This document shows, one piece after another, positions 6,973-40,136 of a stretch of DNA of 64,000 bases. Under the pieces are notes generated by a model. That model had not been told where the DNA came from. It did no database searches and was given only the letters and a program-made list of their open reading frames with translations. The stretch comes from an uncultured Thermoplasmata archaeon. GTDB taxonomy: Archaea; Thermoplasmatota; Thermoplasmata; Halarchaeoplasmatales; Halarchaeoplasmataceae. The stretch spans positions 740-64,739 of the forward strand of contig CAZHUM010000002.1 in NCBI GenBank assembly GCA_964535805.1, written 5' to 3'. The number at the start of each line of letters is the position of its first letter. Position 1 is the first letter of the stretch. The position numbers and the translations under genes were made by a program.

Positions 6973-7121
6973 AAAATCACAATATATTAACTATTAATTA
7001 AGTTTTCTGTTTACTTAGCTATGCATTAAGTCTTTAAACTGTTGAACGATATATTAACTATCTTACCCCCCCTCAATTCTCTAACCTATATCAGATTATC
7101 TGAGTCTATGAGTAGAAAGAG

Positions 7122-9743: not shown

Positions 9744-10050
9744 ATCAGGGGATGTCGTATTGACAAAGGTACAATTCACAGATACCTTCGAAATAAAGAG
9801 AAGACCTGCTGTCGTTCTTTTCGAAGAGATGAACAATGTGGTGATCGCCGGTATAACAAGTAATTTGAATATGGTTGGGATCCCATTATCCAAAGAAGAT
9901 GGGGCGATTAAGGAGAGTGTTATTAAGTTGAACTACATCTTTACGGTATCCAATCAGATGGTAGAGAGAGTCTTATTTAAATTGAATCAGGACAAAAAGG
10001 AAAAAATCTTTGAAGAGATGAATAAAAAACTACGTTCTCTAAAAGATTAA
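9736..10050 (+). CDS. MazF/PemK-family endoribonuclease toxin
   Basis: GDVVLTKVQFTDTFEIKRRPAVVL...VVIAGITSN follows the PemK/MazF pattern GDIV-x-V-x-FPF-x(5-8)-KxRPALVL...V-x-ITS. Confidence 0.65.
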   Translation: MLESGDVVLTKVQFTDTFEIKRRPAVVLFEEMNNVVIAGITSNLNMVGIPLSKEDGAIKESVIKLNYIFTVSNQMVERVLFKLNQDKKEKIFEEMNKKLRSLKD

Positions 10051-10126
10051 ACTGAATTCACTTCTAAGTTTCGCAACTCCGTTGTAAACTTCTTACTCAT
10101 GAGTAAGTTACTTTAGAGTAAGCAGA

Positions 10127-10564
10127 TCATACCTCGTGCTCGATACGCTCGCCGGTGGTCATATACACCACGCGTTCGGCGATGTTACAGGCGTGGTCGG
10201 CGATGCGCTCCAGATACCGTATCACCAGTACGTACTGGGTACCCAGTGTGATAGCCTTGGAGTCCTCCATCATGTAGGTGAGTGTTTCCCGGAATATCTC
10301 GTCGTAGAGTGCATCGACCATCTCTTCCTTTTCGTATATGATGTCGATGGCCTTTCGGTCCTCTTCAACGAAGGAATCTACCGCACGGTCCACCATATCT
10401 ATGGTCAATTCTGCCATGTGCGGTATGGAAACTAATTTCTTCAGATGTTCTTTATCCAGCATCCTCTTTGCCACCTTAGCGATATCTTCGGAATATCGAC
10501 CTATACGGTCAAGATCGGTTATTATCTTGAGACAGGTACCGATCATACGCAGATCTCTGGCCAC
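10127..10564 (-). CDS. PhoU-domain protein, apparently N-terminally truncated
   Basis: YLERIADHACNIAERVVYM is the PhoU repeat signature. The ORF begins at a GTG with an in-frame stop 30 nt upstream and no ATG. It is about 1.5 PhoU repeats long and overlaps the 3' end of the upstream membrane ORF. Confidence 0.55.
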   Translation of the reverse strand: MARDLRMIGTCLKIITDLDRIGRYSEDIAKVAKRMLDKEHLKKLVSIPHMAELTIDMVDRAVDSFVEEDRKAIDIIYEKEEMVDALYDEIFRETLTYMMEDSKAITLGTQYVLVIRYLERIADHACNIAERVVYMTTGERIEHEV

Positions 10565-11030
10565 CGGCGCTTGTAGAGATTATCAATGCATCTTTAGTAC
10601 TCAACTTTTGTATAAAAATAGATAATATCAAAACTGAAAGGGATATCAAGAAAAAGCCAACAATCATCAATCCATTTTTAATATTATAAATAAAAAATTC
10701 AGGGAATAGAAAATAGTAATCGATGAAAATGCCTAGAAAGGTTATCCAGAAAGTAACAAGGAAAACCCTTTCAAAAAAAGTGTTTGGCTGCTCTTTGAAA
10801 GCTTCCTCTTTAATCTTTCTTGAGATAATACCGAACAACAAAACAACATATAGGATAGTGTTAATAGGAAAATTTAGTAAAAAGATGGTAATCATAGTGT
10901 ATAATAAAAAACCAGGTGTATAGTAAGCGGCAGGATTTCCTAAAGCTAGACCAGATATACTAGTAAGAGAGAATAATACGATCAACAGGCCAAACAAGTA
11001 TACCTTGATCAATTTGTTTAGATCGTTCAT
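10509..11030 (-). CDS. hypothetical polytopic membrane protein
   Basis: Multiple hydrophobic helices. AT-rich. The 3' end overlaps the PhoU ORF by 56 nt. Confidence 0.4.
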   Translation of the reverse strand: MNDLNKLIKVYLFGLLIVLFSLTSISGLALGNPAAYYTPGFLLYTMITIFLLNFPINTILYVVLLFGIISRKIKEEAFKEQPNTFFERVFLVTFWITFLGIFIDYYFLFPEFFIYNIKNGLMIVGFFLISLSVLILSIFIQKLSTKDALIISTSAGGQRSAYDRYLSQDNNRS

Positions 11031-11093
11031 TTTATTCTAATCCCGACATAACTGAATAAGGATACGATTATATTTTCTTTTCTATCTACAGAC

Positions 11094-11243
11094 CATTCAA
11101 CCTTCGATCAGCTCTTTCTGCTGTCTGCTCCACTCTTCATTGGAGGTCTTTTTCAGCCACTCTACATACAGATCGATGAATTTCAACCTCTCTTCGAAAT
11201 TCCTTTTTCTTTCTTCCTTTAACTCATCCAAGTCGATATTCAT
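11094..11243 (-). CDS. 49-aa charged helical peptide, translationally coupled to the NTase gene
   Basis: ATGA start/stop overlap with the upstream NTase gene. Translation is MNIDLDELKEERKRNFEERLKFIDLYVEWLKKTSNEEWSRQQKELIEGG. Below the ORF-track length cut-off. Confidence 0.3.
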
Positions 11244-11806
11244 TTTGACCACCCGAGATAGTACTTCGCATCCTCGATAGAAATTTCTAAGGCATCCAAA
11301 TATTCTAGTAGCTTGCCAGTATTTAGATTTTTCTCGAAAAGTTTGAACAAAAATCTTGCATCTTCTATGTCCTTTTCAGAACCCATGAATAGTTTAAAAG
11401 CTATTTGTTGTTCAAGAGGAGATATGGGCAGGCGTTTTTCATTTAACAGAACGGTTATCGAGTTCTCAAGTGCTTTTCTATCCATACCAGTATGTTGAAA
11501 TTTGAGTTCTATGTTAGGAATGATCTCACCCTTATAGGCAAAACGAACTGCTATCTTATCCATCAAATACCCTTCATATGCATCTTTCACATCTGAAGTG
11601 ATTATACACTCGAATTCACCACTCAAATTATGCCACAAATCTTCAAATTTTTTATAAGATATATTTTCACACACAACGTCGATATCTTCACTCGTTCGAT
11701 TTCTCCCAAATAAGATCGCTACATAGCCAGATAAGAAGATATGAGAAATATTCAACTGGGATAGATTTTCTGAGAAGTAGATTGCCATCTCATCCAACTT
11801 GTTCAA
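11240..11806 (-). CDS. nucleotidyltransferase-fold protein, paralog of the 5621..6238 gene
   Basis: LSGYVAILFGRNRTSEDIDVV aligns with LLGSSAVLYRFGNVRSTKDIDV of the other NTase. It shares a downstream P-x-E-x-IA-K segment with it. Confidence 0.55.
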   Translation of the reverse strand: MNKLDEMAIYFSENLSQLNISHIFLSGYVAILFGRNRTSEDIDVVCENISYKKFEDLWHNLSGEFECIITSDVKDAYEGYLMDKIAVRFAYKGEIIPNIELKFQHTGMDRKALENSITVLLNEKRLPISPLEQQIAFKLFMGSEKDIEDARFLFKLFEKNLNTGKLLEYLDALEISIEDAKYYLGWSK

Positions 11807-29859: not shown

Positions 29860-30381
29860 CTAGTCGGTGTACTCGGGCATCTTCTCGATCAAGACATAGA
29901 TGATTACGAATATGAGGACACCGAAAAATATCGAAAGCGGTATGGCGGTCATGGAGTTCATCTCTATATTCAACGCGCTGTACCTGGCCGTGTAGATACC
30001 TCCCCAGGAGATGGCAAAAGCGAGGAGAAGATTTAAAATCAGATTTTTGTTCCAAGAATTTTTGAAATCGTTGAGCATCTTGTTTCTTCTCTCACCGCGG
30101 GTATCTTTTTTGATGCTCCTGACTAGCACTTCTCTGTTAGCCAGGTTCCAACTGGCGTAGAGTGCGAAGAACACACCGAGTATGACCACAAGGTTAAGGT
30201 TGGTGAAATCCAGGTATCTGTTCAGAACGTAGAATGATACGCCGGTCACCATTATACCCAAGCTGTTCAGTGCCCTTTTCTTCAGAAACACGCCGGTGAT
30301 AGAGATGAGTCCTCCGACGACGGGGAGAAACCAGTACGATGTCGGATAGGTGAACAGGGCTGTAACTACAGCTGTTGACAT
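29860..30381 (-). CDS. hypothetical membrane protein (4 TM)
   Basis: The 5' part of the ORF-track ORF overlaps the DUF58 gene in another frame. An internal Met (MSTAVVTALF) was taken as the start. Confidence 0.4.
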   Translation of the reverse strand: MSTAVVTALFTYPTSYWFLPVVGGLISITGVFLKKRALNSLGIMVTGVSFYVLNRYLDFTNLNLVVILGVFFALYASWNLANREVLVRSIKKDTRGERRNKMLNDFKNSWNKNLILNLLLAFAISWGGIYTARYSALNIEMNSMTAIPLSIFFGVLIFVIIYVLIEKMPEYTD

Positions 30382-30419
30382 CACGATTATAGGTGCGGTT
30401 ATCTCCTGGTCCTTCAGAT

Positions 30420-31685
30420 CTATTTTCTCATCTCGTATCGTCTCACCACCTCTAAAGCCGCTTCCAAGGGTTCGTTGGGATCCCAATCCACTACGATGGC
30501 GTACTTCCACAGCTTGTTGATCAGGTTCCTGCGCTCCATCATCAATATCTTCTCGGCTACGGGGTCTTCGATGTCCTGCTCTGAAAGTTCTATCGCCAAG
30601 GGAGACGGGGATACTATCAATAGGTCGTACTCGTTCCTCCAGAGGTCCACCACGGTCTTCATAATCTTCGGGTCCACCAGAGGAGACACTATTATCACCA
30701 TGCTCTTGCTCGGGAAGAACCTGTTTATCACCCATTTTGCGTCCTCAAGATCCCACAGACCGCCCTGGCTCGGGTTGCATAGGCTGTCCATTATCTCGTA
30801 GAATTGATCCCTTCCGAAGCCGGGATATACCCAGTTGAGGAAATCTCCCAGTATGACCATCCCCACCCTGTTCCTGTCCTCTAAGATCGAAGCTGCCATA
30901 CTCGCCGCCGCTCTGATCGATGCGTTGTTCGTGTTCCTCTCCACGGTACCCACGTTCGAATCCATACCGGCATCTATCAAGATGATCACGTCGGCGCTCT
31001 GCTCTCCCTCGTACTCGTTGGTTATCGGGTGCATGTACCGAGCGGTCGCCCTCCAGTTTATCCTCTTCATCTCATCGCCCATCTGATACTCCCTGAGTGC
31101 GAAGAACTCGGAACCCACTCCGATGGCACCGGATCTAATATTGCCCAGCCAGTTCTTCGTGTACTTGGGTCTGATATAGACACGCTTGATGTCTTCGATC
31201 TTGGGAAGTATGGACAACTTGATCATCTCTTCGGATTTCCACTCGCGTGTGTAGAGCTCGAATGGGTCACGGTACCTCAATCGGATGGGACCGACCTTAC
31301 CCTCGCCCCTTACGGGACAACAAATCTTGTAGTGTATAGATCTGGTCTCGCCAGGGCCGATCTCGAATATGTTGTGGTTCGTCCCCTGGCTCACATCAAG
31401 TCTGGGTGATATCTCGTCCAGGACTTCTAGATATTTTATCGCATCTCCATCGTTCGTGAAGGAAGTGATGATATCCACCTCGTCGTCCTCGTAGACCTGT
31501 GTAACCTCTACCTCCCTGTTGATATCGATTTGGAGTTCATCTGGCGGTGCGTAGAGCAGCCCGAAGACGAGTATCGATATGGACGGTATCGATAGAACGA
31601 GCAGAACCCAGCTTCTGAGCAAGAGGCCGAAGATCACGGCCAAAAGGGCGAATCCAGCTATGTAAAAGGAAGAGAGGGTTCTCAT
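30420..31685 (-). CDS. DUF58 protein (vWA-like partner of MoxR ATPases)
   Basis: FFALREYQMGDEMKRINWRATAR is the DUF58 signature. Two N-terminal TM helices are present. The gene directly abuts moxR. Confidence 0.8.
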   Translation of the reverse strand: MRTLSSFYIAGFALLAVIFGLLLRSWVLLVLSIPSISILVFGLLYAPPDELQIDINREVEVTQVYEDDEVDIITSFTNDGDAIKYLEVLDEISPRLDVSQGTNHNIFEIGPGETRSIHYKICCPVRGEGKVGPIRLRYRDPFELYTREWKSEEMIKLSILPKIEDIKRVYIRPKYTKNWLGNIRSGAIGVGSEFFALREYQMGDEMKRINWRATARYMHPITNEYEGEQSADVIILIDAGMDSNVGTVERNTNNASIRAAASMAASILEDRNRVGMVILGDFLNWVYPGFGRDQFYEIMDSLCNPSQGGLWDLEDAKWVINRFFPSKSMVIIVSPLVDPKIMKTVVDLWRNEYDLLIVSPSPLAIELSEQDIEDPVAEKILMMERRNLINKLWKYAIVVDWDPNEPLEAALEVVRRYEMRK

Positions 31686-32636
31686 CTACTTCACTTTGGG
31701 GACGGGCACCTTTTTGAGTATCTGGTCGATTATATCTGCCGGGTCGACACCCATTATCGCGGGACTGGGTTTAAGGACCAATCTATGTGAGAGTGCTTCC
31801 TTGGCTAGGAATTTAACATCATCCGGTAGAACGTAGTCTCTGCCCATCACCGCCGCGTTGGCCATGGAGACCTTCATGAGAGCAAGACTGCCTCTGGGAC
31901 TGGAGCCGACTTCCACCTGGCTGTGCTTCCTGGTCATCTGCACGATGTTGACGATGTAGTTCTTTATGTCGTCGTCCAGATGCACTTCTTCTACCGATTC
32001 CTGCATCTCCAGTACCGTCTTCGGATTGGTCAGCTTCTTGGTTTCCACTTCATCGGTCTTCCTATCTTTTCTCCTACGAAGGATCTCTACTTCGTCTTTC
32101 TGGCTCGGATAACCGACATCCAAGCGCAGCATGAACCTGTCCACTTGTGCTTCCGGGAGCGGGTACGTTCCCTCGTACTCGATGGGGTTCTGCGTGGCTA
32201 TGACGATGAAAGGCGGTGACATCTTGTGCGTTTCACCCTCGATGGTCGTCTGTTTCTCCTGCATAGCTTCTAAAAGGGCGGCCTGGGTCTTCGGTGGAGC
32301 CCTGTTGATCTCGTCCGCAAGTAATATGTTCGTGAATATGGGCCCCTTCCGCATCTTGAACTCTCCGGTGTTCCGGTCGTAGATGAACGACCCGGTTATG
32401 TCAGCGGGCAGCAGATCCGGGGTGAATTGGATCCTCTTGAAATCACACCCTAGAGCATCGGCAAAACAGTTCGACATCATGGTCTTCGCTAAACCTGGGA
32501 AGTCCTCGAAGAGGATGTGTCCGTTGGCCAAGAAACCGACGAGTGTTTTTCTCAGCACTCTTTTCTTTCCCACTATGGTCTTGCTCACTTCGTTGATCAA
32601 TCCTTTTCCTATCTTAGATACTTTTTCTATCTTCAA
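31686..32636 (-). CDS. moxR: MoxR-family AAA+ ATPase
   Basis: Walker A is FPGLAKT, the MoxR-type PGxAKT variant. Walker B is LLADEINRAPPKTQAALLEAM. The C-terminal region is conserved. Confidence 0.85.
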   Translation of the reverse strand: MKIEKVSKIGKGLINEVSKTIVGKKRVLRKTLVGFLANGHILFEDFPGLAKTMMSNCFADALGCDFKRIQFTPDLLPADITGSFIYDRNTGEFKMRKGPIFTNILLADEINRAPPKTQAALLEAMQEKQTTIEGETHKMSPPFIVIATQNPIEYEGTYPLPEAQVDRFMLRLDVGYPSQKDEVEILRRRKDRKTDEVETKKLTNPKTVLEMQESVEEVHLDDDIKNYIVNIVQMTRKHSQVEVGSSPRGSLALMKVSMANAAVMGRDYVLPDDVKFLAKEALSHRLVLKPSPAIMGVDPADIIDQILKKVPVPKVK

Positions 32637-33301
32637 CTCCAGTCCTCCATTCTATTGATCAAATCTATTATTTTTCTTCTGTAATCTTCATCTTTCTTGA
32701 ACGATCTTCTTGAAGATAGGGATTTATTTTCCCTGCACAACTCCCTATAGTGATTACAATTTATAAGGAATTCGGTGATAACGTCGTCATCGACCTCTTC
32801 TATGAGCCTATCATTATCCTCAAGGAGCTCGTCTATGTGATCTGGTGAATATCCCCTTTCCTGTTTCATCTTCTCGACGAAGTCGTCCATGAGTCTCCCC
32901 TCCAGCATGGCTCTGCTGGTTTCCAATCCCTTTGAGGACCGATTAACCAGATTGGATGTTCTGTTCAATCTAGAACCGACTATTATATCCAGCTCGTTTT
33001 GATTTCTCCAGGTGACCAAGGGAGAGGTTTTATTGTGGAATATCTTCATCAAGAGGGTAGCGACAATCCCCAAAGCCAGTATGATCACCAGCCATCTTAC
33101 ACCTCCACTGTTTCCCACCCAGGGAAGGGACACCAAAAGAAAAAAAGCGAGGATGAGGGCTATAAAGGTGAATATGCTGTCGAGATGATCTAGACCTGAT
33201 TCACGGTTACCTAAAAATGAACTGTATTTGAATCGAGGGACCGCGCGGATGAGGAAATCATCCTCATGCTCATCTTCCATTTCTTCTTCCCATTTGGTCA
33301 T
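32633..33301 (-). CDS. 2-TM membrane protein, paralog 1 of a four-member family
   Basis: An acidic N-terminus and two TM helices are followed by a domain containing W-R/K-N-x-NEL and VGS-K/R-L. It overlaps the moxR start by 4 nt. Confidence 0.5.
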   Translation of the reverse strand: MTKWEEEMEDEHEDDFLIRAVPRFKYSSFLGNRESGLDHLDSIFTFIALILAFFLLVSLPWVGNSGGVRWLVIILALGIVATLLMKIFHNKTSPLVTWRNQNELDIIVGSRLNRTSNLVNRSSKGLETSRAMLEGRLMDDFVEKMKQERGYSPDHIDELLEDNDRLIEEVDDDVITEFLINCNHYRELCRENKSLSSRRSFKKDEDYRRKIIDLINRMEDWS

Positions 33302-33474
33302 CTAGGACCTCCTACCTCGCTGTTTTAAGTTGGAGGAGTAATAATAAATTACATAACTTTCTATAAGACATTTGTGCTCTATAATGCTATTTATACTCCT
33401 GTAGTTTTGTTTGTATAGATTTTTACACTCGTTAACGATAAATTAAAAGAAAGGGGTTTGCTTATTTATCAAAG

Positions 33475-34779
33475 CTATGTATATACGAGACGACAAGCCC
33501 AACTAGTAAGGCAGGGGTTAGGACACATTGGTTCGTTTTTATCGCTGACATACAATCTAGTTGGATGTATTCCACCGTTCAATATCTTAACACCAAGAGC
33601 ATCAAAACCCGAAAAAGTCGCCGTTATTTTTTCTTCAAGGGTTTTACCGAACAAAATAGTTTCGTCGCTCTTCCGCTTATAACGGACAAGCATGTTCATA
33701 TTATCATCGTATCTCATCACCTGATGGAAATGTACCAAACCATTGTTTTTATCAGTTTTAAAAGTAGTAAGGAAAAAGTTGTCCTCAGGTATTATTGTTA
33801 TTACACCATTATAGTCAAGTTCTGTGATTTCATAAAAGTTTAGATGCTTTGTACTTACCATCTTCACTATAGAACTAATATATTGCCCTCTAGTATTGGT
33901 TACCGTATATTTAGTTGTAGTTATTAGTCCAATCTGAGATATTACCTCCGAAGTTATATTTACCTCCGAATTAACCGTATCTACACCCCAGACAGTAAAC
34001 ACTTCTGTGTATGGGTTAAATGAAAAGGCCATTTCAGGAGTTGTTTGAACCAATATATATATAGACTGAGATGCCCCATCGCTTTGCCTTGTGACGTTTA
34101 GTTTGATTGCCTGATTCAAAATTGTGTTCTCAGGTACGTAAAGTGTTTCAGATACCGCTACATTTTCTCCTGGTTGTGCAGTAATTTCTGTTGGTGGTAT
34201 TGCACCTTGTAAAACCCATCCTTCAGGTATTGTTGATTCATCCGCTTCTAATGTAAATGTTTCTTGTGCCATAATATTTTCATTCCTGACATGGATTGTA
34301 TCTGTTGCTGATGTTCCCGGTGCTATGTCCAGGGGAATAACACATTCATGTCCAACATTGTTACCTTCATTCGATTCAGCGATTGTATCTGTTGTGTCTA
34401 GGACCAGTTCGAAGTTCACTTGATAAGATGCAAGTGCCTCCACTACGTATTTAACTCCTTTAATCCCACCAGCTCTGATTGGCGGTTCAACCCATATATC
34501 AAATGTTTCTGTTGGTTCCTGCCAGAAACCAGCTGTTTCCGCATATTTTAATTCCATCCAAAAGCCATCTTCAACATCTGCATCCCCTATATTTTCTATG
34601 TATATAGTCATTGGTAATTCTTCTCCTTCTATTACAGGATAAACAGCGCCTATGCCCTTACCTACTAAATCCGGTTGTCTTTGTTCCGCTTGTACCGCTG
34701 TAGCTGGCATTATAGCCAACCCACTAAAAACCAATAAACCAATCACTAACAGTGACGGTCCTATTTTACTTATATTCAT
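33475..34779 (-). CDS. secreted or surface protein with N-terminal CARDB-like domain
   Basis: A signal peptide is followed by DLVGKGIGAVYPVIEGEELPMTIYIENIGDADVEDGFWMELKY, which has a CARDB-like pattern. It is flanked by AT-rich DNA. Confidence 0.5.
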   Translation of the reverse strand: MNISKIGPSLLVIGLLVFSGLAIMPATAVQAEQRQPDLVGKGIGAVYPVIEGEELPMTIYIENIGDADVEDGFWMELKYAETAGFWQEPTETFDIWVEPPIRAGGIKGVKYVVEALASYQVNFELVLDTTDTIAESNEGNNVGHECVIPLDIAPGTSATDTIHVRNENIMAQETFTLEADESTIPEGWVLQGAIPPTEITAQPGENVAVSETLYVPENTILNQAIKLNVTRQSDGASQSIYILVQTTPEMAFSFNPYTEVFTVWGVDTVNSEVNITSEVISQIGLITTTKYTVTNTRGQYISSIVKMVSTKHLNFYEITELDYNGVITIIPEDNFFLTTFKTDKNNGLVHFHQVMRYDDNMNMLVRYKRKSDETILFGKTLEEKITATFSGFDALGVKILNGGIHPTRLYVSDKNEPMCPNPCLTSWACRLVYT

Positions 34780-35033
34780 GTATATCTCACCTATCAGAAG
34801 TAATGTATTGTTATTATTTATATTTATCGCATATTAGATATATATATATATAATATAGTTTCGATACTTCTTCTCCTCTCATCATCAACCACCCGGTTGA
34901 CAATGTATTACAACCCTGCAGTTATGATCACAACTTCACTGGAACACATTACCTGGCTGAATACCTTTCTAACTTGTCTACATATATAAGAGAGGTTTGT
35001 GTATCTAATTTTCAGTTTCCTTATGTATTTCTT

Positions 35034-35702
35034 TTAACTCCAGTTTTCCATCCTACCGATCACAATTTCGATCCATTCCCTATAATCATCATCAGATTTT
35101 TTATTAATTTTCATATTCGAAAACAACTTTTTATCTCCTCCCGTTTCACGATAATCTTTACAGTGTATAAGGAAATCCGAGATAACATCATCTCCAACGA
35201 AGTTCCGTAATCTGTTAGGATCCTCTAACAATTCTTTTACTTCACTATCAGATAATCCTCTCTCATACTTCATCTCCTCGACGAAGTCGTCCCTTATCCT
35301 CTCTTCCAGCAGTGCTTGACTCATCTCCAATCCCTCGGAAGACCTTCTAACCAGGTCGGAGGTTTCTTTCAACTTGGAGCCGACTAACAGATCCAACTCG
35401 TTTGTATTTCTCCAGCCCATCAACGGACAACTTTTATCATAAATTGTCTTAGCTATAAATGATGCAACTATAGACAGGCTCAAAATAATTATAAACCAGC
35501 GTATCATCCCACTATAAGGTACCCACCAAATCGTCAATAATATAATAGCTGAAAGGAAAACAATTACAAATGAAAAAATATTTTTGAAGCGATCCACCCC
35601 GGATTCACGATTACCTAGTGCAGCGCTGTGTTTGAATCTCTGAGGCATGCGTACGAGATTATCGTCTTCGAATTCGTCTAGATATTCTTCTTCAAATTTC
35701 AT
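35034..35702 (-). CDS. 2-TM membrane protein, paralog 2
   Basis: Same architecture as paralog 1. The C-terminal ~110 aa are near-identical to paralog 3. Confidence 0.55.
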   Translation of the reverse strand: MKFEEEYLDEFEDDNLVRMPQRFKHSAALGNRESGVDRFKNIFSFVIVFLSAIILLTIWWVPYSGMIRWFIIILSLSIVASFIAKTIYDKSCPLMGWRNTNELDLLVGSKLKETSDLVRRSSEGLEMSQALLEERIRDDFVEEMKYERGLSDSEVKELLEDPNRLRNFVGDDVISDFLIHCKDYRETGGDKKLFSNMKINKKSDDDYREWIEIVIGRMENWS

Positions 35703-35724
35703 TGTGAACCGACCTCTATTATCT

Positions 35725-36396
35725 TCAACTCCAGTTTTCCATCCTATCGATCACTTTTTCGATCCGTTTCCTATAATCTTCATTTGATTTTATGTCTACT
35801 TCTACATTCGAAAACAACTTTTTATCTCCTCCCGTTTCCCGATAATCTTTACAGTGTATAAGGAAATCCAAGATAATATCATCTCCAACGAAGTTCCGTA
35901 ATCTGTTAGGATCCTCCAACAATTCTTTTACTTCACTATCAGATAATCCTCTCCCATACTTCATCTCCTCGACGAAGTCGTCCCTGATCCTCTCTTCCAG
36001 CAGTGCTTGACTCATCTCCAATCCCTCGGAAGACCTCCTAACCAGGTCGGAGGTTTCTTTCAACTTGGAGCCAACAACGACATCCAATTCGTTTCTATTC
36101 CTCCAGTTTATGAGTGGTATGCTCCTTTTATGGAATATCCTCAACAGTAGAGAAACTACGATTCCCAATGCTAACAATATACACATCCATCTCAATGCAC
36201 CGCTATTTTTTATCCAGGGAATTAATATGAGAAGGAAAAAGGCGAGGATAAACGCTATAAAAGTAAATATGCTGTCTAGATAGTCTTTACCAGTTTCGCG
36301 CATCCCTAATGCCCCTTTTTCCCTATAATCGCAAATACCTGGGGCCAAAAAATCGTTTTCAACCTTTTCTTCCCATTCTTCATGCAATTTCATCAT
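35725..36396 (-). CDS. 2-TM membrane protein, paralog 3
   Basis: Its 3' ~400 bp are over 95% identical to the paralog 2 region. Confidence 0.55.
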   Translation of the reverse strand: MMKLHEEWEEKVENDFLAPGICDYREKGALGMRETGKDYLDSIFTFIAFILAFFLLILIPWIKNSGALRWMCILLALGIVVSLLLRIFHKRSIPLINWRNRNELDVVVGSKLKETSDLVRRSSEGLEMSQALLEERIRDDFVEEMKYGRGLSDSEVKELLEDPNRLRNFVGDDIILDFLIHCKDYRETGGDKKLFSNVEVDIKSNEDYRKRIEKVIDRMENWS

Positions 36397-37259
36397 ATAC
36401 CCCCTCCTATCTCTTTCTTTAGTTTATTGAGACCACTCAAAGCCCTTCTCCTGTCCTCATCACCTAACTCATGAACGCTGTACCTTGCCTCCTCGAACGT
36501 TTTCGTCATATCTGATATGATCGATGAATCTATTCTCAGTTTCTTCACTGCCAATCTCCTGAACTCGCGTGGTGTCATGGAATCGTTATCCTTCAGACCT
36601 CTTTCCTCCAGTGTGTTACACATCCTTTGATAACTCCGTATTATGGTTGAGCGTACATCCTTACCTTGGTGTAGCTCATCGATCGTCTCTTCTACATCAG
36701 AAGTGATCTTTTCCCTCATACCCCCTTCCAATTTTTCTTTCTCGGTTTTCAGTTTATTAACAACGTATGTATTTGCTTTCTTAAATATGTAGATATACAC
36801 GATCAACATCAAGATAACTATTGGTATCAATAGAGCTAATGTATTAGAATAGTTTGCGTAGTAAAAGGTGCCTCCGGGGAAGATTGATGTGAATGATTTG
36901 ATAAAGGGGAGTAATTTCAACATTATAATGAAAACTATACCGCCAAACACATAACCCAGTAGTTTTACTCCCATCTCAAAAGCTTCTTCCTTATCCTTCG
37001 TAAATTCATAAACCGCAGCTGCCGAAGCAACTACCAAACTGGATATAAAGATATAAAAAGCTATCTTGAAAGGAAACTGCACAACAGTAGATCCATCGGA
37101 ACCCCCCGATTCGGAGGCGGGTGCGATCAGATCCGGTGTTTTCTCCCCTCCAGTAAAAACATACGGATAGGCATTGAGCAGGTTCCCTATAGCCCAACAA
37201 GTTAGGAGCAGAAGAAGTATACCAATCAAGACTATGGTCTTTCTACCCGTACTATTCAC
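36393..37259 (-). CDS. DUF4129-like membrane protein (paralog A)
   Basis: The C-terminal conserved block is MTPREFRRLA...FEEARYSVHELGDEDR. TM helices are present. It overlaps the next gene by 4 nt. Confidence 0.55.
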   Translation of the reverse strand: MNSTGRKTIVLIGILLLLLTCWAIGNLLNAYPYVFTGGEKTPDLIAPASESGGSDGSTVVQFPFKIAFYIFISSLVVASAAAVYEFTKDKEEAFEMGVKLLGYVFGGIVFIIMLKLLPFIKSFTSIFPGGTFYYANYSNTLALLIPIVILMLIVYIYIFKKANTYVVNKLKTEKEKLEGGMREKITSDVEETIDELHQGKDVRSTIIRSYQRMCNTLEERGLKDNDSMTPREFRRLAVKKLRIDSSIISDMTKTFEEARYSVHELGDEDRRRALSGLNKLKKEIGGGI

Positions 37260-37296
37260 CTAATAAAATAAGGTTATTTGTTATATAAGAGTGTTT

Positions 37297-37896
37297 TCAC
37301 CCCAATCCCTCCATCTTGTCCATCACCCTCTCGATCCTTTTCTTGTAATCCTGGGGAGTCTCCCTCGACCTGTCCGAGAACAATCTCGCCGCGCCGCCTG
37401 CGTCCCTGAAGTCCTTACTGGTCTTCAGGAACTCGTAGATGTCTTCGTCCCCTATCTCTTTCTTCAATTTTTCCATGTCATCCATGAGCTCATCTATCTC
37501 ATCTGGAGAGAGACCTCTGTCCTGCTTCAAGCTCTCGATGATGTGGTCTTTCAACCTCTCCTCTAGCAGTGCCTGGCTGGCATCGTATCCCTTGAAAGCC
37601 CTCTGTACCAGCTCCGAGGTCTCACCCAGCTTGGAGCCGACCCGCATGTTCAGCTCGTTCTTGCGCTTCCAGCTCTCCAGGGGCTGTGATCGGCGGTACA
37701 TCAGAAGAGCTACGATGCTGGCGATGATCCCGAGAGAAAATATGCTGATTGTCCACCGGAGCATGCCGGAATAGGGTGACCACGGTATGAACACTATGAG
37801 CATGAATATCATCAGAATGGTCACGAACTTGAACACATTCTCGAAGCCTTCTCTCTCTTTCTTGTATTCCTTTTCAATCCGTTCCATGGGCACCAC
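37297..37896 (-). CDS. 2-TM membrane protein, paralog 4
   Basis: Same family; contains WKRKNELNMRVGSKLGETSELV. Confidence 0.5.
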   Translation of the reverse strand: MVPMERIEKEYKKEREGFENVFKFVTILMIFMLIVFIPWSPYSGMLRWTISIFSLGIIASIVALLMYRRSQPLESWKRKNELNMRVGSKLGETSELVQRAFKGYDASQALLEERLKDHIIESLKQDRGLSPDEIDELMDDMEKLKKEIGDEDIYEFLKTSKDFRDAGGAARLFSDRSRETPQDYKKRIERVMDKMEGLG

Positions 37897-38782
37897 CTCC
37901 CAGCTCGTCTCTCAGAGCGTTCAAGCTTGTCATCGCTTTCTTCCTGTGCGTATCACCGAGTTCATGTCTGCTGTACCTGGCCTCTTCGAACATGGATGTG
38001 AGAGTCTCGAGAGTCCCTTTACTGACATCCAGCCTTCTCACAGCAGTTACTTCGAACTCCCTGGGAGTCATGAAGTCATCCTGCTCTACGCCGGTGTCTT
38101 CAAGCACACGGCACATGGATTGGTAACAGCGTATCACGGTCGATCTAACGTCCTTACCCTTGTACAACTCGTCCACTGTTTTCTCCACGGTCGATGATAT
38201 CTCATCCCTGATATCCTCTTCCTCGCCGAGCTCCATCTTATCGTACAGGTAACTGTTCACTCTGTAGTAAACGATCACACCCAATAAGCCCACCCCGACC
38301 AGCAGCAGTATAACTCCACCGATGGACCCACCTATCAGCGGTATTGGACTTCCACCGGTTCCACCATCGCCAGATGGCGGCTCTATGGCGTCCCCGATTT
38401 TCATCTGGCCAGGAGAAAATATAAGAACGAATATCAACATGGCCAACCCGGTGCCTATCGCAGTTGCTATAAGTTTAACCACCATGGTCTTGTCCTTTTC
38501 TATCACGGCTACAGCTACTGCCAGTATAGAAAGTACGATCAGAGCTCCGATAAAGAAGTAATATATGTACTTGATGAGTTTTGCATCCGCCCCCTCTACC
38601 TCACCCGTTCCAGCACTCCCCTGGTTGAACTCCGGATACTCGTCCTCCCCTCCGCCGTATATATGCGGCAGCGTATACAAAAGGTTGCCCACCGCCCAGG
38701 AGGCCAATATCAAAAGAATTACCGCTATGCCGAGGACTGTTTTCTTATCCAGGTTTCCACCTAGTTGAATAATTAGGTCCAA
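37874..38782 (-). CDS. DUF4129-like membrane protein (paralog B)
   Basis: The C-terminal block is MTPREFEVTA...FEEARYSRHELGDTHR. A Gly-rich segment and TM helices are present. Confidence 0.55.
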   Translation of the reverse strand: MDLIIQLGGNLDKKTVLGIAVILLILASWAVGNLLYTLPHIYGGGEDEYPEFNQGSAGTGEVEGADAKLIKYIYYFFIGALIVLSILAVAVAVIEKDKTMVVKLIATAIGTGLAMLIFVLIFSPGQMKIGDAIEPPSGDGGTGGSPIPLIGGSIGGVILLLVGVGLLGVIVYYRVNSYLYDKMELGEEEDIRDEISSTVEKTVDELYKGKDVRSTVIRCYQSMCRVLEDTGVEQDDFMTPREFEVTAVRRLDVSKGTLETLTSMFEEARYSRHELGDTHRKKAMTSLNALRDELGGGAHGTD

Positions 38783-38846: not shown

Positions 38847-40136
38847 TTGATGGATATTAATAGGCCTTCGATGCACATATTGACCATCCTTATCGTTGTA
38901 ATGCTCTTTTTTAATTTCAGCTTTTTAGGAATTGTAAGATCCGATGACGGCGATCTGGCTGATTCAGCCTGGCCCTGCTACAAAGGTGACATGAGACGAG
39001 TTGGAAGGAGCGAACAGGACGTGTCTAAAAACGGCCGTGAGATCAGATGGAATCTTTACATCAACCGATACAAGGTTACTTCGTCTCCATCGATAGGGGC
39101 CGACGGTACGATCTACCTGGGCTCGGACACAAACAAGCTGTATGCGGTCACACCGGATGGAGAGATCAAATGGACACAAAAGATCGGTGAGACGCCTAGT
39201 GATTTCTTCGGAGACGATGCCACTTCGAGAAGCTCTGCTTGCATAGGTCCAGACGGCACCATCTACATCGGCTCTTCCAGTAAAAAGATGTTCGCTATCA
39301 ACGAAGATGGAGATATGATATACAACTATTCTACAAACGAGAAGATCGATTCTTCACCCATCCTGGACCCCAAAGGGAACCTTTATTTTGGAAGCACGGA
39401 CGGATATATCTACAAATTAAATGATTCCTTCGGGTTGGAATGGAAGTACGATACGGGGAGCAGTATAGTATCCTCACCAGCTATCGATGAAGACGGTACT
39501 GTCTACATAGGTAATAAGGAGGGGGAGTTATTAGCATTCAATCCCGATGGAGATATCGAGTGGAATTATTCCTGTGAAAGTGAGATCCAGTCTACTCCTG
39601 CGGTCTCCGATGAAGGCGATATCTATTTCGGGACGTGGGAAGGTGTTGTATACGCACTGGACGGAGAGGGAAACGAACTCTGGACGTACGAAACCGAAAG
39701 CTACATTGAATCATCCCCTTCCGTCGATAGAAACGGTGTGATATACATGGGCTCCTGGGATCGTAACTTGTATGCATTGAACCCCGATGGTTCTTTGAAG
39801 TTGAAGTACGAGACTGCCAGCATGGTACGGTCTACTCCGATAATTGATAAGAACGGCATGATAATCTTCGGCTCTGACGATTCGAATATATACGTGCTTA
39901 CACCGGATGGAAGATTAGACTGGAAGATAAGCATACAAGATAAAGTCCTATCTTCACCCGCTCTAGGCGAAGACGGGACCATATATGTGGGTTCAGGGGA
40001 CGGAAGATTATATGCCATCAACGAAAAAAGCCATAAGGACAAGATAGAATCCATTTTCTGGACGATTGTCCCGATAATAGTCATCATCGTAGTCGTCTTT
40101 TTATTCGTTATACTGATCAAATTAAGAGAGAAATGA
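38847..40136 (+). CDS. PQQ-like beta-propeller repeat protein with signal peptide and C-terminal TM anchor
   Basis: About eight repeats of SSPAI..DGTIY-I/V-GS.D..LYA...DG...W. The C-terminus is IVPIIVIIVVVFLFVILI. Confidence 0.75.
   Translation: MMDINRPSMHILTILIVVMLFFNFSFLGIVRSDDGDLADSAWPCYKGDMRRVGRSEQDVSKNGREIRWNLYINRYKVTSSPSIGADGTIYLGSDTNKLYAVTPDGEIKWTQKIGETPSDFFGDDATSRSSACIGPDGTIYIGSSSKKMFAINEDGDMIYNYSTNEKIDSSPILDPKGNLYFGSTDGYIYKLNDSFGLEWKYDTGSSIVSSPAIDEDGTVYIGNKEGELLAFNPDGDIEWNYSCESEIQSTPAVSDEGDIYFGTWEGVVYALDGEGNELWTYETESYIESSPSVDRNGVIYMGSWDRNLYALNPDGSLKLKYETASMVRSTPIIDKNGMIIFGSDDSNIYVLTPDGRLDWKISIQDKVLSSPALGEDGTIYVGSGDGRLYAINEKSHKDKIESIFWTIVPIIVIIVVVFLFVILIKLREK

Follow-up and report, generated by a model that had tools for sequence, protein, structure and literature searches.

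MoxR proteins are chaperones that work with VWA partners (PMC12067865, PMC11834572). In the Bat (Bacteroides aerotolerance) operon and in the mycobacterial moxR1 operon, a gene for a MoxR protein of the AAA_3 type is directly followed by a DUF58 gene among membrane-protein genes (PMC11834572, PMC12067865), and an archaeal neighborhood of MoxR, an Ig-vWA protein and a small membrane protein has been predicted to form a secretion or membrane-remodeling complex (PMC5898192). We analyzed a 64,000-nucleotide (nt) stretch of DNA from an uncultured Thermoplasmata archaeon (assembly GCA_964535805.1, contig CAZHUM010000002.1, positions 740 to 64,739; hereafter the window), in which positions 29860-38782 carry a MoxR-DUF58 gene pair within an array of membrane-protein genes. 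Two of the encoded proteins contain a DUF4129 domain (A1 and A2), four belong to a family with two transmembrane (TM) helices (B1 to B4), one is a secreted CARDB protein, and a further membrane protein, E, is encoded after DUF58. We found that the interval is an expanded copy of a widespread, functionally uncharacterized five-gene membrane module, A-B-MoxR-DUF58-E, of which B and E are the unannotated members.

The window shares the succession of MoxR and DUF58 with the Bat and moxR1 operons, but its proteins have no Pfam matches to the BatA/BatB-type VWA or TPR components. In MRP-type operons MoxR heads the operon, whereas here the DUF4129 and B genes precede it and the DUF58 protein lacks the DxSxS motif. 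The arCOG01314/DUF4350 complex (Makarova, Galperin and Koonin 2015, PMC5898192) comprises MoxR, a protein with Ig-like and vWA (DUF58-type) domains, proteins with 2-3 and with 5 TM helices, and Ig-like surface proteins. Compared by architecture rather than by arCOG assignment of A, B and E, the protein architectures in the window fit this description; however, none of the 12 window proteins scanned (10 from the locus and two neighbors) matches DUF4350, and the Ig-like CARDB gene is read as a lineage-specific passenger. The bifidobacterial PFNA cluster (an FN3 protein, MoxR, DUF58 and a transglutaminase) also combines MoxR-DUF58 with a membrane partner and an Ig-fold surface protein (PMC12067865), but A1 and A2 have no transglutaminase core, no kinase is present, and the B family is absent from the PFNA description. 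MoxR-vWA ternary conflict systems (Kaur et al. 2020, PMC7159879) consist of MoxR, a vWA-like partner and more components, and the window shares with them a bpMoxR match and a neighboring beta-propeller gene. In contrast to these systems, it has no VMAP, iSTAND, FtsH or effector domains and no PADLOC match, and its beta-propeller is a signal-anchored, PQQ/BamB-like protein encoded on the other strand.

The same gene order, DUF4129-hypothetical-MoxR-DUF58-hypothetical, occurs on the Streptomyces plasmid NZ_CP108633.1 as annotated in RefSeq, with proteins of 325, 176, 329, 448 and 200 amino acids (aa). A preliminary description of the window had stated that MoxR/DUF58/DUF4129 operons are known, and this plasmid is one example. 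As in the window, its second gene encodes about two TM helices and its fifth a polytopic membrane protein, but these two proteins show no detectable homology to B and E, and all of its genes are single-copy. The second gene was tried as a B homolog and rejected, with a score of 9.9 bits confined to the TM region.

Using the invariant A motif FEEARYSxH, we fetched 80 metagenomic loci and scored them with custom hidden Markov models, which left 61 informative loci. One A and one B gene were found in 57 of these 61, in archaea and bacteria, with B located between the DUF4129 gene and MoxR-DUF58. Because a single A and a single B stand beside MoxR-DUF58 in so many loci, we consider A-B-MoxR-DUF58-E a conserved module. 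The single-copy order A-B-MoxR-DUF58(-E) is seen in L002, L004, L006, L008 and L094; DUF58 lies directly downstream of MoxR also in the other loci where MoxR is present, and it is usually followed by a multi-TM protein of ~180 aa. The carriers include archaea (with an archaeal alanyl-tRNA synthetase in L012) and bacteria (with a polynucleotide phosphorylase in L013). The window holds all five genes of the module as defined here. More than one B gene per MoxR-DUF58 pair was found in three places only: the window, the sister species L001, and L009, where the second copy is a truncated remnant. The amplification is therefore as unusual as the preliminary description had supposed, and the array is a real, locally unusual expansion of a known but uncharacterized type of MoxR operon. 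In a separate case from soda-lake sediment (L084:1619-13441), three mutually divergent A-B-DUF58-E modules, on different branches of the family, follow each other in tandem with no MoxR among them, an arrangement compatible with one ATPase serving several membrane sets.

The array genes are all on the minus strand, transcribed in the order A1-B1-A2-B2-B3-CARDB-B4-MoxR-DUF58-E, with the following features in window coordinates:

37874-38782, minus strand: A1, 302 aa, four TM helices and a C-terminal DUF4129 domain
37297-37887, minus strand: B1, 196 aa, two-TM hairpin and helical domain
32652-37295, minus strand: strain-variable block A2-B2-B3-CARDB-B4, 4.64 kb, between B1 and MoxR
36393-37259, minus strand: A2, 288 aa, second DUF4129 protein and first gene of the variable block
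35725-36396, minus strand: B2, 223 aa, B paralog coupled to A2
35034-35702, minus strand: B3, 222 aa, mosaic B paralog
35113-35384, minus strand: conversion or recombination tract in B3, with its partner tract in B2 at 35804-36075
33475-34779, minus strand: CARDB protein, 434 aa, secreted, signal peptide, Cys-rich tail at the C-terminus
32633-33301, minus strand: B4, 222 aa, B paralog coupled to MoxR
31686-32636, minus strand: MoxR AAA+ ATPase, AAA_3 and AAA_lid_2 domains
30420-31685, minus strand: DUF58 protein, N-terminal TM hairpin, beta-sandwich region and VWA-like DUF58 domain
29860-30381, minus strand: E, 173 aa, ~4 TM helices, no known family

Every gene of the preliminary description is present on this strand in the order it gave, and Pfam confirms MoxR, DUF58, DUF4129 and CARDB. 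The array was, however, said to lie downstream of MoxR, and in the direction of transcription it lies upstream (5′). Each DUF4129-like gene was also said to overlap the next by 4 nt. This applies to A2/B2 (ATGA), but A1 and B1 overlap by 14 nt when B1 starts at the ATG at 37887, as it does in the L094 gene calls. Two features had been missed, namely the 4-nt overlap of B4 and MoxR (TTGA) and the fifth conserved gene, E, whose start we assigned to the ATG at 30381, with the open frame continuing upstream. The end of MoxR (31686) directly abuts the start of DUF58 (31685). AT-rich spacers (254 and 173 nt) flank the CARDB gene only, and the 254-nt spacer upstream of that gene contains a (TA)n-rich palindrome at 34831-34856, which may be promoter or insertion-scar sequence. 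The Rfam and tRNA scans gave no match in the interval.

The four two-TM proteins are truly related, as the preliminary description had proposed. Even B1 and B4, the two that lie furthest apart, share 38% identity over 182 aa (BLASTP E 5e-50), the B proteins are 38-45% identical to B1, and their alignment has 55 invariant columns. The conserved motif first noticed in them, WRNxNEL...VGSKL, holds among the local paralogs but not across the whole B family, where the shared motifs are SGxLRW, RAxxGxxxSQ, DxxxxxFL and a C-terminal [M/I]ExWx tail. An exhaustive profile search was needed to find this family, and it returned 171 cluster representatives (92 at E < 1e-10), all ~200 aa long and matching end to end, so that B is not an oddity of one lineage. 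A word-indexed protein search recovered only a few B homologs, a scan of genome contigs returned L001 only, and a metagenome scan seeded with a B alignment gave no match. None of the 126 B members scanned passes any Pfam threshold, and NCBIfam has no match to the family. The sole recurrent Pfam signal is DUF7269 (PF23933), which extends from the TM hairpin into the start of the helical domain and stays below its gathering threshold of 29.1 bits in all members (16.4 bits for B1, 14.0 bits for B4, no match for B2 and B3; 15 of the 126 at E ≤ 0.01, best 1.2e-5). Homology of B to DUF7269 is plausible but unproven. B is a core gene of the module that lacks a family annotation, rather than an accessory ‘partner’.

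Each window B protein has two TM helices, and hydropathy together with lysine/arginine (K/R) counts places both ends on one side of the membrane, with a loop of 8-9 residues on the far side; the charged helical domain would then be cytoplasmic. The N-terminal tail, the TM hairpin and this helical domain are the variable parts of the protein. An AlphaFold2 model of B built from 84 sequences (mean predicted local distance difference test 77.6) consists of a TM hairpin (35-61 and 66-91) and a helical bundle (111-220), giving a predicted helical domain of ~110 aa. A Foldseek search of the model against the PDB found nothing better than E 5, and PDB sequence searches with A, B and DUF58 found nothing significant. 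The helical domain was also considered as a diverged DUF4129 and rejected (hhalign probability 2.8%). Among 147 full-length B members, 91 end in [M/I]-E-x-W-x-COOH, with the Trp penultimate. The tail is kept in B2-B4 (MENWS or MEDWS; that of B4, MEDWS, lies at 32633-32650) and lost in B1, which ends KMEGLG, and in its L001 and L094 orthologs. It could be a docking motif.

The A proteins both match DUF4129 (PF13559) above the Pfam gathering threshold of 24.8 bits (A1, E 1.5e-11, 44.7 bits; A2, E 1.3e-12, 48.0 bits). They are 39% identical and share the MTPREF...FEEARYSxHELGD block, as first described. TgpA-type transglutaminases end in a DUF4129 domain. In A1 and A2, Pfam matched neither Transglut_core nor DUF3488 with E values up to 1, and the proteins are only 288-302 aa long. 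Each has four TM helices; those of A1 span 16-34, 76-94, 104-122 and 153-171, with a K/R-rich inner loop. By the same hydropathy and charge analysis, two loops of 30-41 aa face outward, and the DUF4129 domain and the N-terminus lie inside the cell. These outer loops differ between A1 and A2. A1 is the ancestral copy, kept in every relative (orthologs in L001, L094, L008 and L009).

MoxR matches AAA_3 (E 2.6e-64, 215.4 bits, cut-off 27) and AAA_lid_2 (E 2.4e-22, 78.9 bits), shows GLAKT, a P-loop of ordinary form, and DEINR in its translation, and has no TM segment. It also passes the bpMoxR Pfam threshold (33.3 bits versus 27), but under the far stronger AAA_3 match. The DUF58 protein (PF01882, E 1e-18, 67.8 bits versus a gathering threshold of 23.4) has a weak match to the beta-sandwich protein 5bxg. 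At the position of the MIDAS, an adhesion site that depends on a metal ion, it reads IDAGMDS (IILIDAGMDS) in place of DxSxS; 40 DUF58 orthologs from the module mostly read D-A-R-R-E-S there, where the window has D-A-G-M-D-S. A 173-aa E gene is called in L091 and L094, and an E homolog lies 3′ of DUF58 in 18 loci. In the window, the genes beyond E encode an RNase P Pop5-like protein and a radical SAM protein.

We now turn to the origin of the extra copies. In a neighbor-joining tree of 34 B sequences (200 bootstraps), the B proteins of the window, L001, L008, L009 and L010 form one clade with 96% support, within which B2, B3 and B4 group together at 100% and the B1 pair is a separate group. The A tree runs parallel, with the A2 pair branching beside the group of A1, L008, L009 and L010. 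Because the A and B copies group inside the clade, the duplications were local, a point that the preliminary description had wanted checked by a phylogeny. Flanking B2 on its 3′ side is TTGAAGATA, which preserves the first three MoxR codons (repeat family D3); a duplicated unit that reached across the B/MoxR junction would leave such a trace. A tract of ~97% identity over ~270 nt (alignment columns ~341-612; repeat family D2) is common to B2 and B3, versus ~50% in their 5′ halves, and the B3-B2 distance falls from 1.00 in the N-terminal half to 0.14 in the C-terminal one. B3 is a mosaic, probably made by gene conversion with B2.

The CARDB gene has another history. Its product matches CARDB (PF07705) at E 5.4e-8 and 33.4 bits, above the gathering threshold of 22.7, and belongs to a small archaeal family of ~430-aa proteins with a signal peptide and a Cys-rich tail (RLDTxD...PxCxN..C....C), whose genes lie in variable regions. 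Its homologs in other archaea (L096 and L097) stand alone, not beside MoxR, and the one in L096 is near Cdc6 and a phage-type integrase. The GC content at third codon positions (GC3) is lowest in the locus for CARDB (0.29) and is also low in A2 (0.44), B2 (0.45) and B3 (0.41), versus 0.74 in B1, 0.67 in MoxR and 0.70 in DUF58. We read the CARDB gene as an unrelated passenger that was inserted into the array.

Comparison with close relatives shows that copy number varies across strains. The Logan contig L094 matches window positions 43138-37296 at 98.0% and 32651-26002 at 98.5% (blastn). Between these matches, ~47 nt replace window positions 37295-32652, leaving the gene order A1-B1-MoxR-DUF58-E with B1 as the sole B copy. 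The ~47 nt end in ATGACCAAATGG joined to AGGACTGGAGTTGA, the first 12 and the last 14 nt of B4; the 12-mer of this 26-nt relic is found at a single place in the window, against a chance expectation of 0.03. Because the B4 relic is kept, L094 lost the block by deletion and is not an empty site; and because L094 is a deletion derivative, the block is dispensable. Within L094, at 7029-7073, the relic forms a 14-codon mini-ORF (open reading frame) that begins with ATGACCAAATGGAGGACT and overlaps the TTG start of MoxR, and some translational coupling to MoxR may persist there.

The sister species L001, a Thermoplasmata metagenome-assembled genome whose flanks are 81-84% identical to the window in nucleotides, has the order A1-B1-A2-B2-CARDB-B4-MoxR-DUF58-E, without B3. 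Protein identity to the window is 80-91% for the flanking genes, 91% for B1, 99.4% for MoxR and 96.9% for DUF58, versus 64% for A2, 66% for B2, 60% for CARDB and 50% for B4 within the block. Sliding nucleotide identity is 0.53-0.75 in the block and 0.84-0.91 outside it, with the drop lying between ~37215 and 32757. The L001 ortholog of A2 (L001:9314-10159) has a single in-frame TAG at codon 181 (DETI*ALYDG); downstream of it, the DUF4129 sequence stays in frame and shows full conservation. The TAG could reflect read-through, a sequencing error or a nonsense mutation that arose very recently; the sole other assembly, L095, is 100% identical to L001 and consequently offers no independent evidence. 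L008 has a single A-B pair, with B overlapping MoxR as B4 does. In L009 (5806-8114), an A-B pair is followed by a three-gene insertion, which includes a UPF0175-like gene and an AAA_14/DUF4143 ATPase, and then by a truncated second B before MoxR; this remnant consists of the C-terminal ~105 aa, has no TM helices, and has retained the 4-nt overlap with MoxR. Rearrangement seems to have struck the B/MoxR junction repeatedly.

According to crude Nei-Gojobori estimates of non-synonymous (dN) and synonymous (dS) divergence from the L001 orthologs, the block genes have a dN/dS of 0.13-0.20 with saturated dS (1.8-2+), while the flanking genes have a dS of 0.7-1.0 and MoxR has a dN of 0.004 at a dS of 0.73. 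The block copies are constrained, and are not positively selected as whole genes. We also considered the 99.4% identity of MoxR as a sign of recent transfer and rejected it, because a dS of 0.73 equals the background. The extra synonymous divergence of the block and its low GC3 suggest low expression, recombinational exchange of older alleles, or both.

From these data, we propose that the array is probably a strain-variable, dispensable expansion that arose by birth-and-death and recombination and that remains under purifying selection where it is present, making it an expanded variant of an uncharacterized MoxR module. An A-B cassette beside MoxR would have been duplicated in tandem within this Thermoplasmata clade. 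In the subsequent turnover, A2-B2 and B4 would have been retained, B3 converted with B2, and the unrelated CARDB gene inserted, while elsewhere A2 would have gained a stop codon in the sister species and the whole 4.6-kb block would have been deleted in a near-identical strain.

The divergence estimates bear on how the extra copies are maintained. The preliminary description attributed the paralogs to diversification under selection, such that alternative A, B and CARDB sets would alter the display of the envelope or surface. Indeed, no part of the locus has diverged as far between species as the block (50-66% aa identity versus 80-99% in its neighbors), the content of the block differs between strains, the A1 and A2 outer loops are dissimilar, and a secreted protein is encoded within the block. 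However, at this low dN/dS and saturated dS there is no excess of amino-acid change, the amplified B family exposes only ~8-9 residues, the homologs of the CARDB passenger lie apart from MoxR modules, L094 can do without the block, and L001 has an interrupted A2; consequently, we find positive selection for surface variation quite improbable. If instead the extra copies were functionless duplicates being lost, and only A1-B1-MoxR-DUF58-E mattered, one could account for the L094 deletion, the stop codon in L001 A2, the lack of B3 in L001, the low GC3 and the presence in L009 of only a truncated second B. Such decay is unlikely: six of six extra window ORFs are intact, their dN/dS stayed low across a divergence that saturates dS, the 4-nt overlaps of A2/B2 and B4/MoxR are preserved, B2-B4 have kept the family's Trp tail that B1 has lost, and the canonical position overlapping MoxR is held by B4, not by B1.

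The block might also be a horizontally acquired island, a foreign A-B array with CARDB that was inserted between B1 and MoxR. Its low GC3 relative to B1, MoxR and DUF58, its presence or absence between 98%-identical strains, a saturated window/L001 dS that is confined to the block with sharp edges, the CARDB homolog near an integrase in L096, and the insertion that also struck the B/MoxR junction of L009 all agree with such an origin. But in the trees B2-B4 and A2 fall among the B and A proteins of the clade itself and not with distant lineages, no integrase, transposase, tRNA, or direct or inverted repeat was found at the block edges, the B4 relic makes the absence in L094 a deletion, and MoxR start codons lie 3′ of B2, as local duplication predicts. 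We judge a foreign island to be rather improbable, while homologous-recombination exchange of the block among related strains is possible and is compatible with local expansion and turnover. A very improbable reading, finally, makes the locus a MoxR-vWA biological-conflict system, in which variable A and B proteins would be sensor or effector modules diversifying against viruses. MoxR-vWA ternary conflict systems are on record (PMC7159879), strain-variable content is typical of defense loci, MoxR passes the bpMoxR threshold, and a membrane-anchored beta-propeller gene conserved in the clade is divergent from A1. Yet no PADLOC model matches any protein of the locus, the Pfam and NCBIfam scans show no peptidase or nuclease effector domain, VMAP, iSTAND or FtsH, the P-loop is not of the GXXXTAKS form reported from FtsH and beta-propeller systems (PMC7159879), an AAA_3 match of 215 bits far outweighs the bpMoxR match, and the core module is single-copy and syntenic beside housekeeping genes in most loci.

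The beta-propeller gene itself lies at window positions 38847-40136 on the plus strand and encodes a PQQ/BamB-like protein that has a signal anchor at its N-terminus and a TM helix at its C-terminus. It is also present beside A1 in L001, L094 and L009, and it may or may not belong to the module. As a further observation on the window, its lowest-GC stretches are 1-2000 and 10000-11500, with 1-kb values of 0.29-0.39 versus a mean of 0.45.

The conserved gene order suggests how the module could work. With ATP as its fuel and the VWA-like DUF58 protein as its adaptor, MoxR would assemble or remodel a complex of A, B and E in the membrane, working from inside the cell on the cytoplasmic domains of these proteins. 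Overlapping genes would give a fixed A:B ratio, and likewise for B and MoxR. The extra A and B paralogs would then supply alternative membrane partners to a single, very conserved MoxR-DUF58 engine. A more specific proposal is that A and B are exchangeable specificity or adaptor cassettes, which are gained, lost and recombined to retarget a near-invariant motor to other membrane or envelope clients, possibly including virus interactions. It fits the recombination tract of B2 and B3, the triple A-B-DUF58-E modules of L084 and the [M/I]ExWx tail of B, and we give it a slim chance.

Several points weigh against our account of the array and its mechanism. The saturated dS of the block relative to its flanks, combined with low GC3, means that simple divergence in place is not a full explanation. 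The deletion strain, L094, is a single-run Logan assembly. The order A-B-DUF58-E occurs without an adjacent MoxR in L084, L012, L026, L028 and L088. The DUF58 protein has no canonical MIDAS, and standard metal-mediated VWA binding may therefore not apply to it. The mechanism draws on gene order, gene overlaps and topology prediction, and within the latter the orientations of B and of the soluble part of DUF58 come from charge bias only; the Ig-vWA protein of the archaeal neighborhood is, moreover, held to be probably secreted (PMC5898192).

By itself, the array does not reveal a new kind of system; of more use is a by-product of the analysis, which defines the five-gene module and its unannotated B family. 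Few prokaryotic AAA+ systems with still unknown clients are as widespread as the MoxR-DUF58 operons, and their DUF4129-linked type gains two further fixed components, the B family and the E membrane protein. The array is a natural gain/loss experiment, in which two 98%-identical strains differ only by the block. The membrane partners multiply while the ATPase stays single and almost invariant, which points to A and B as the client-facing parts of the module.

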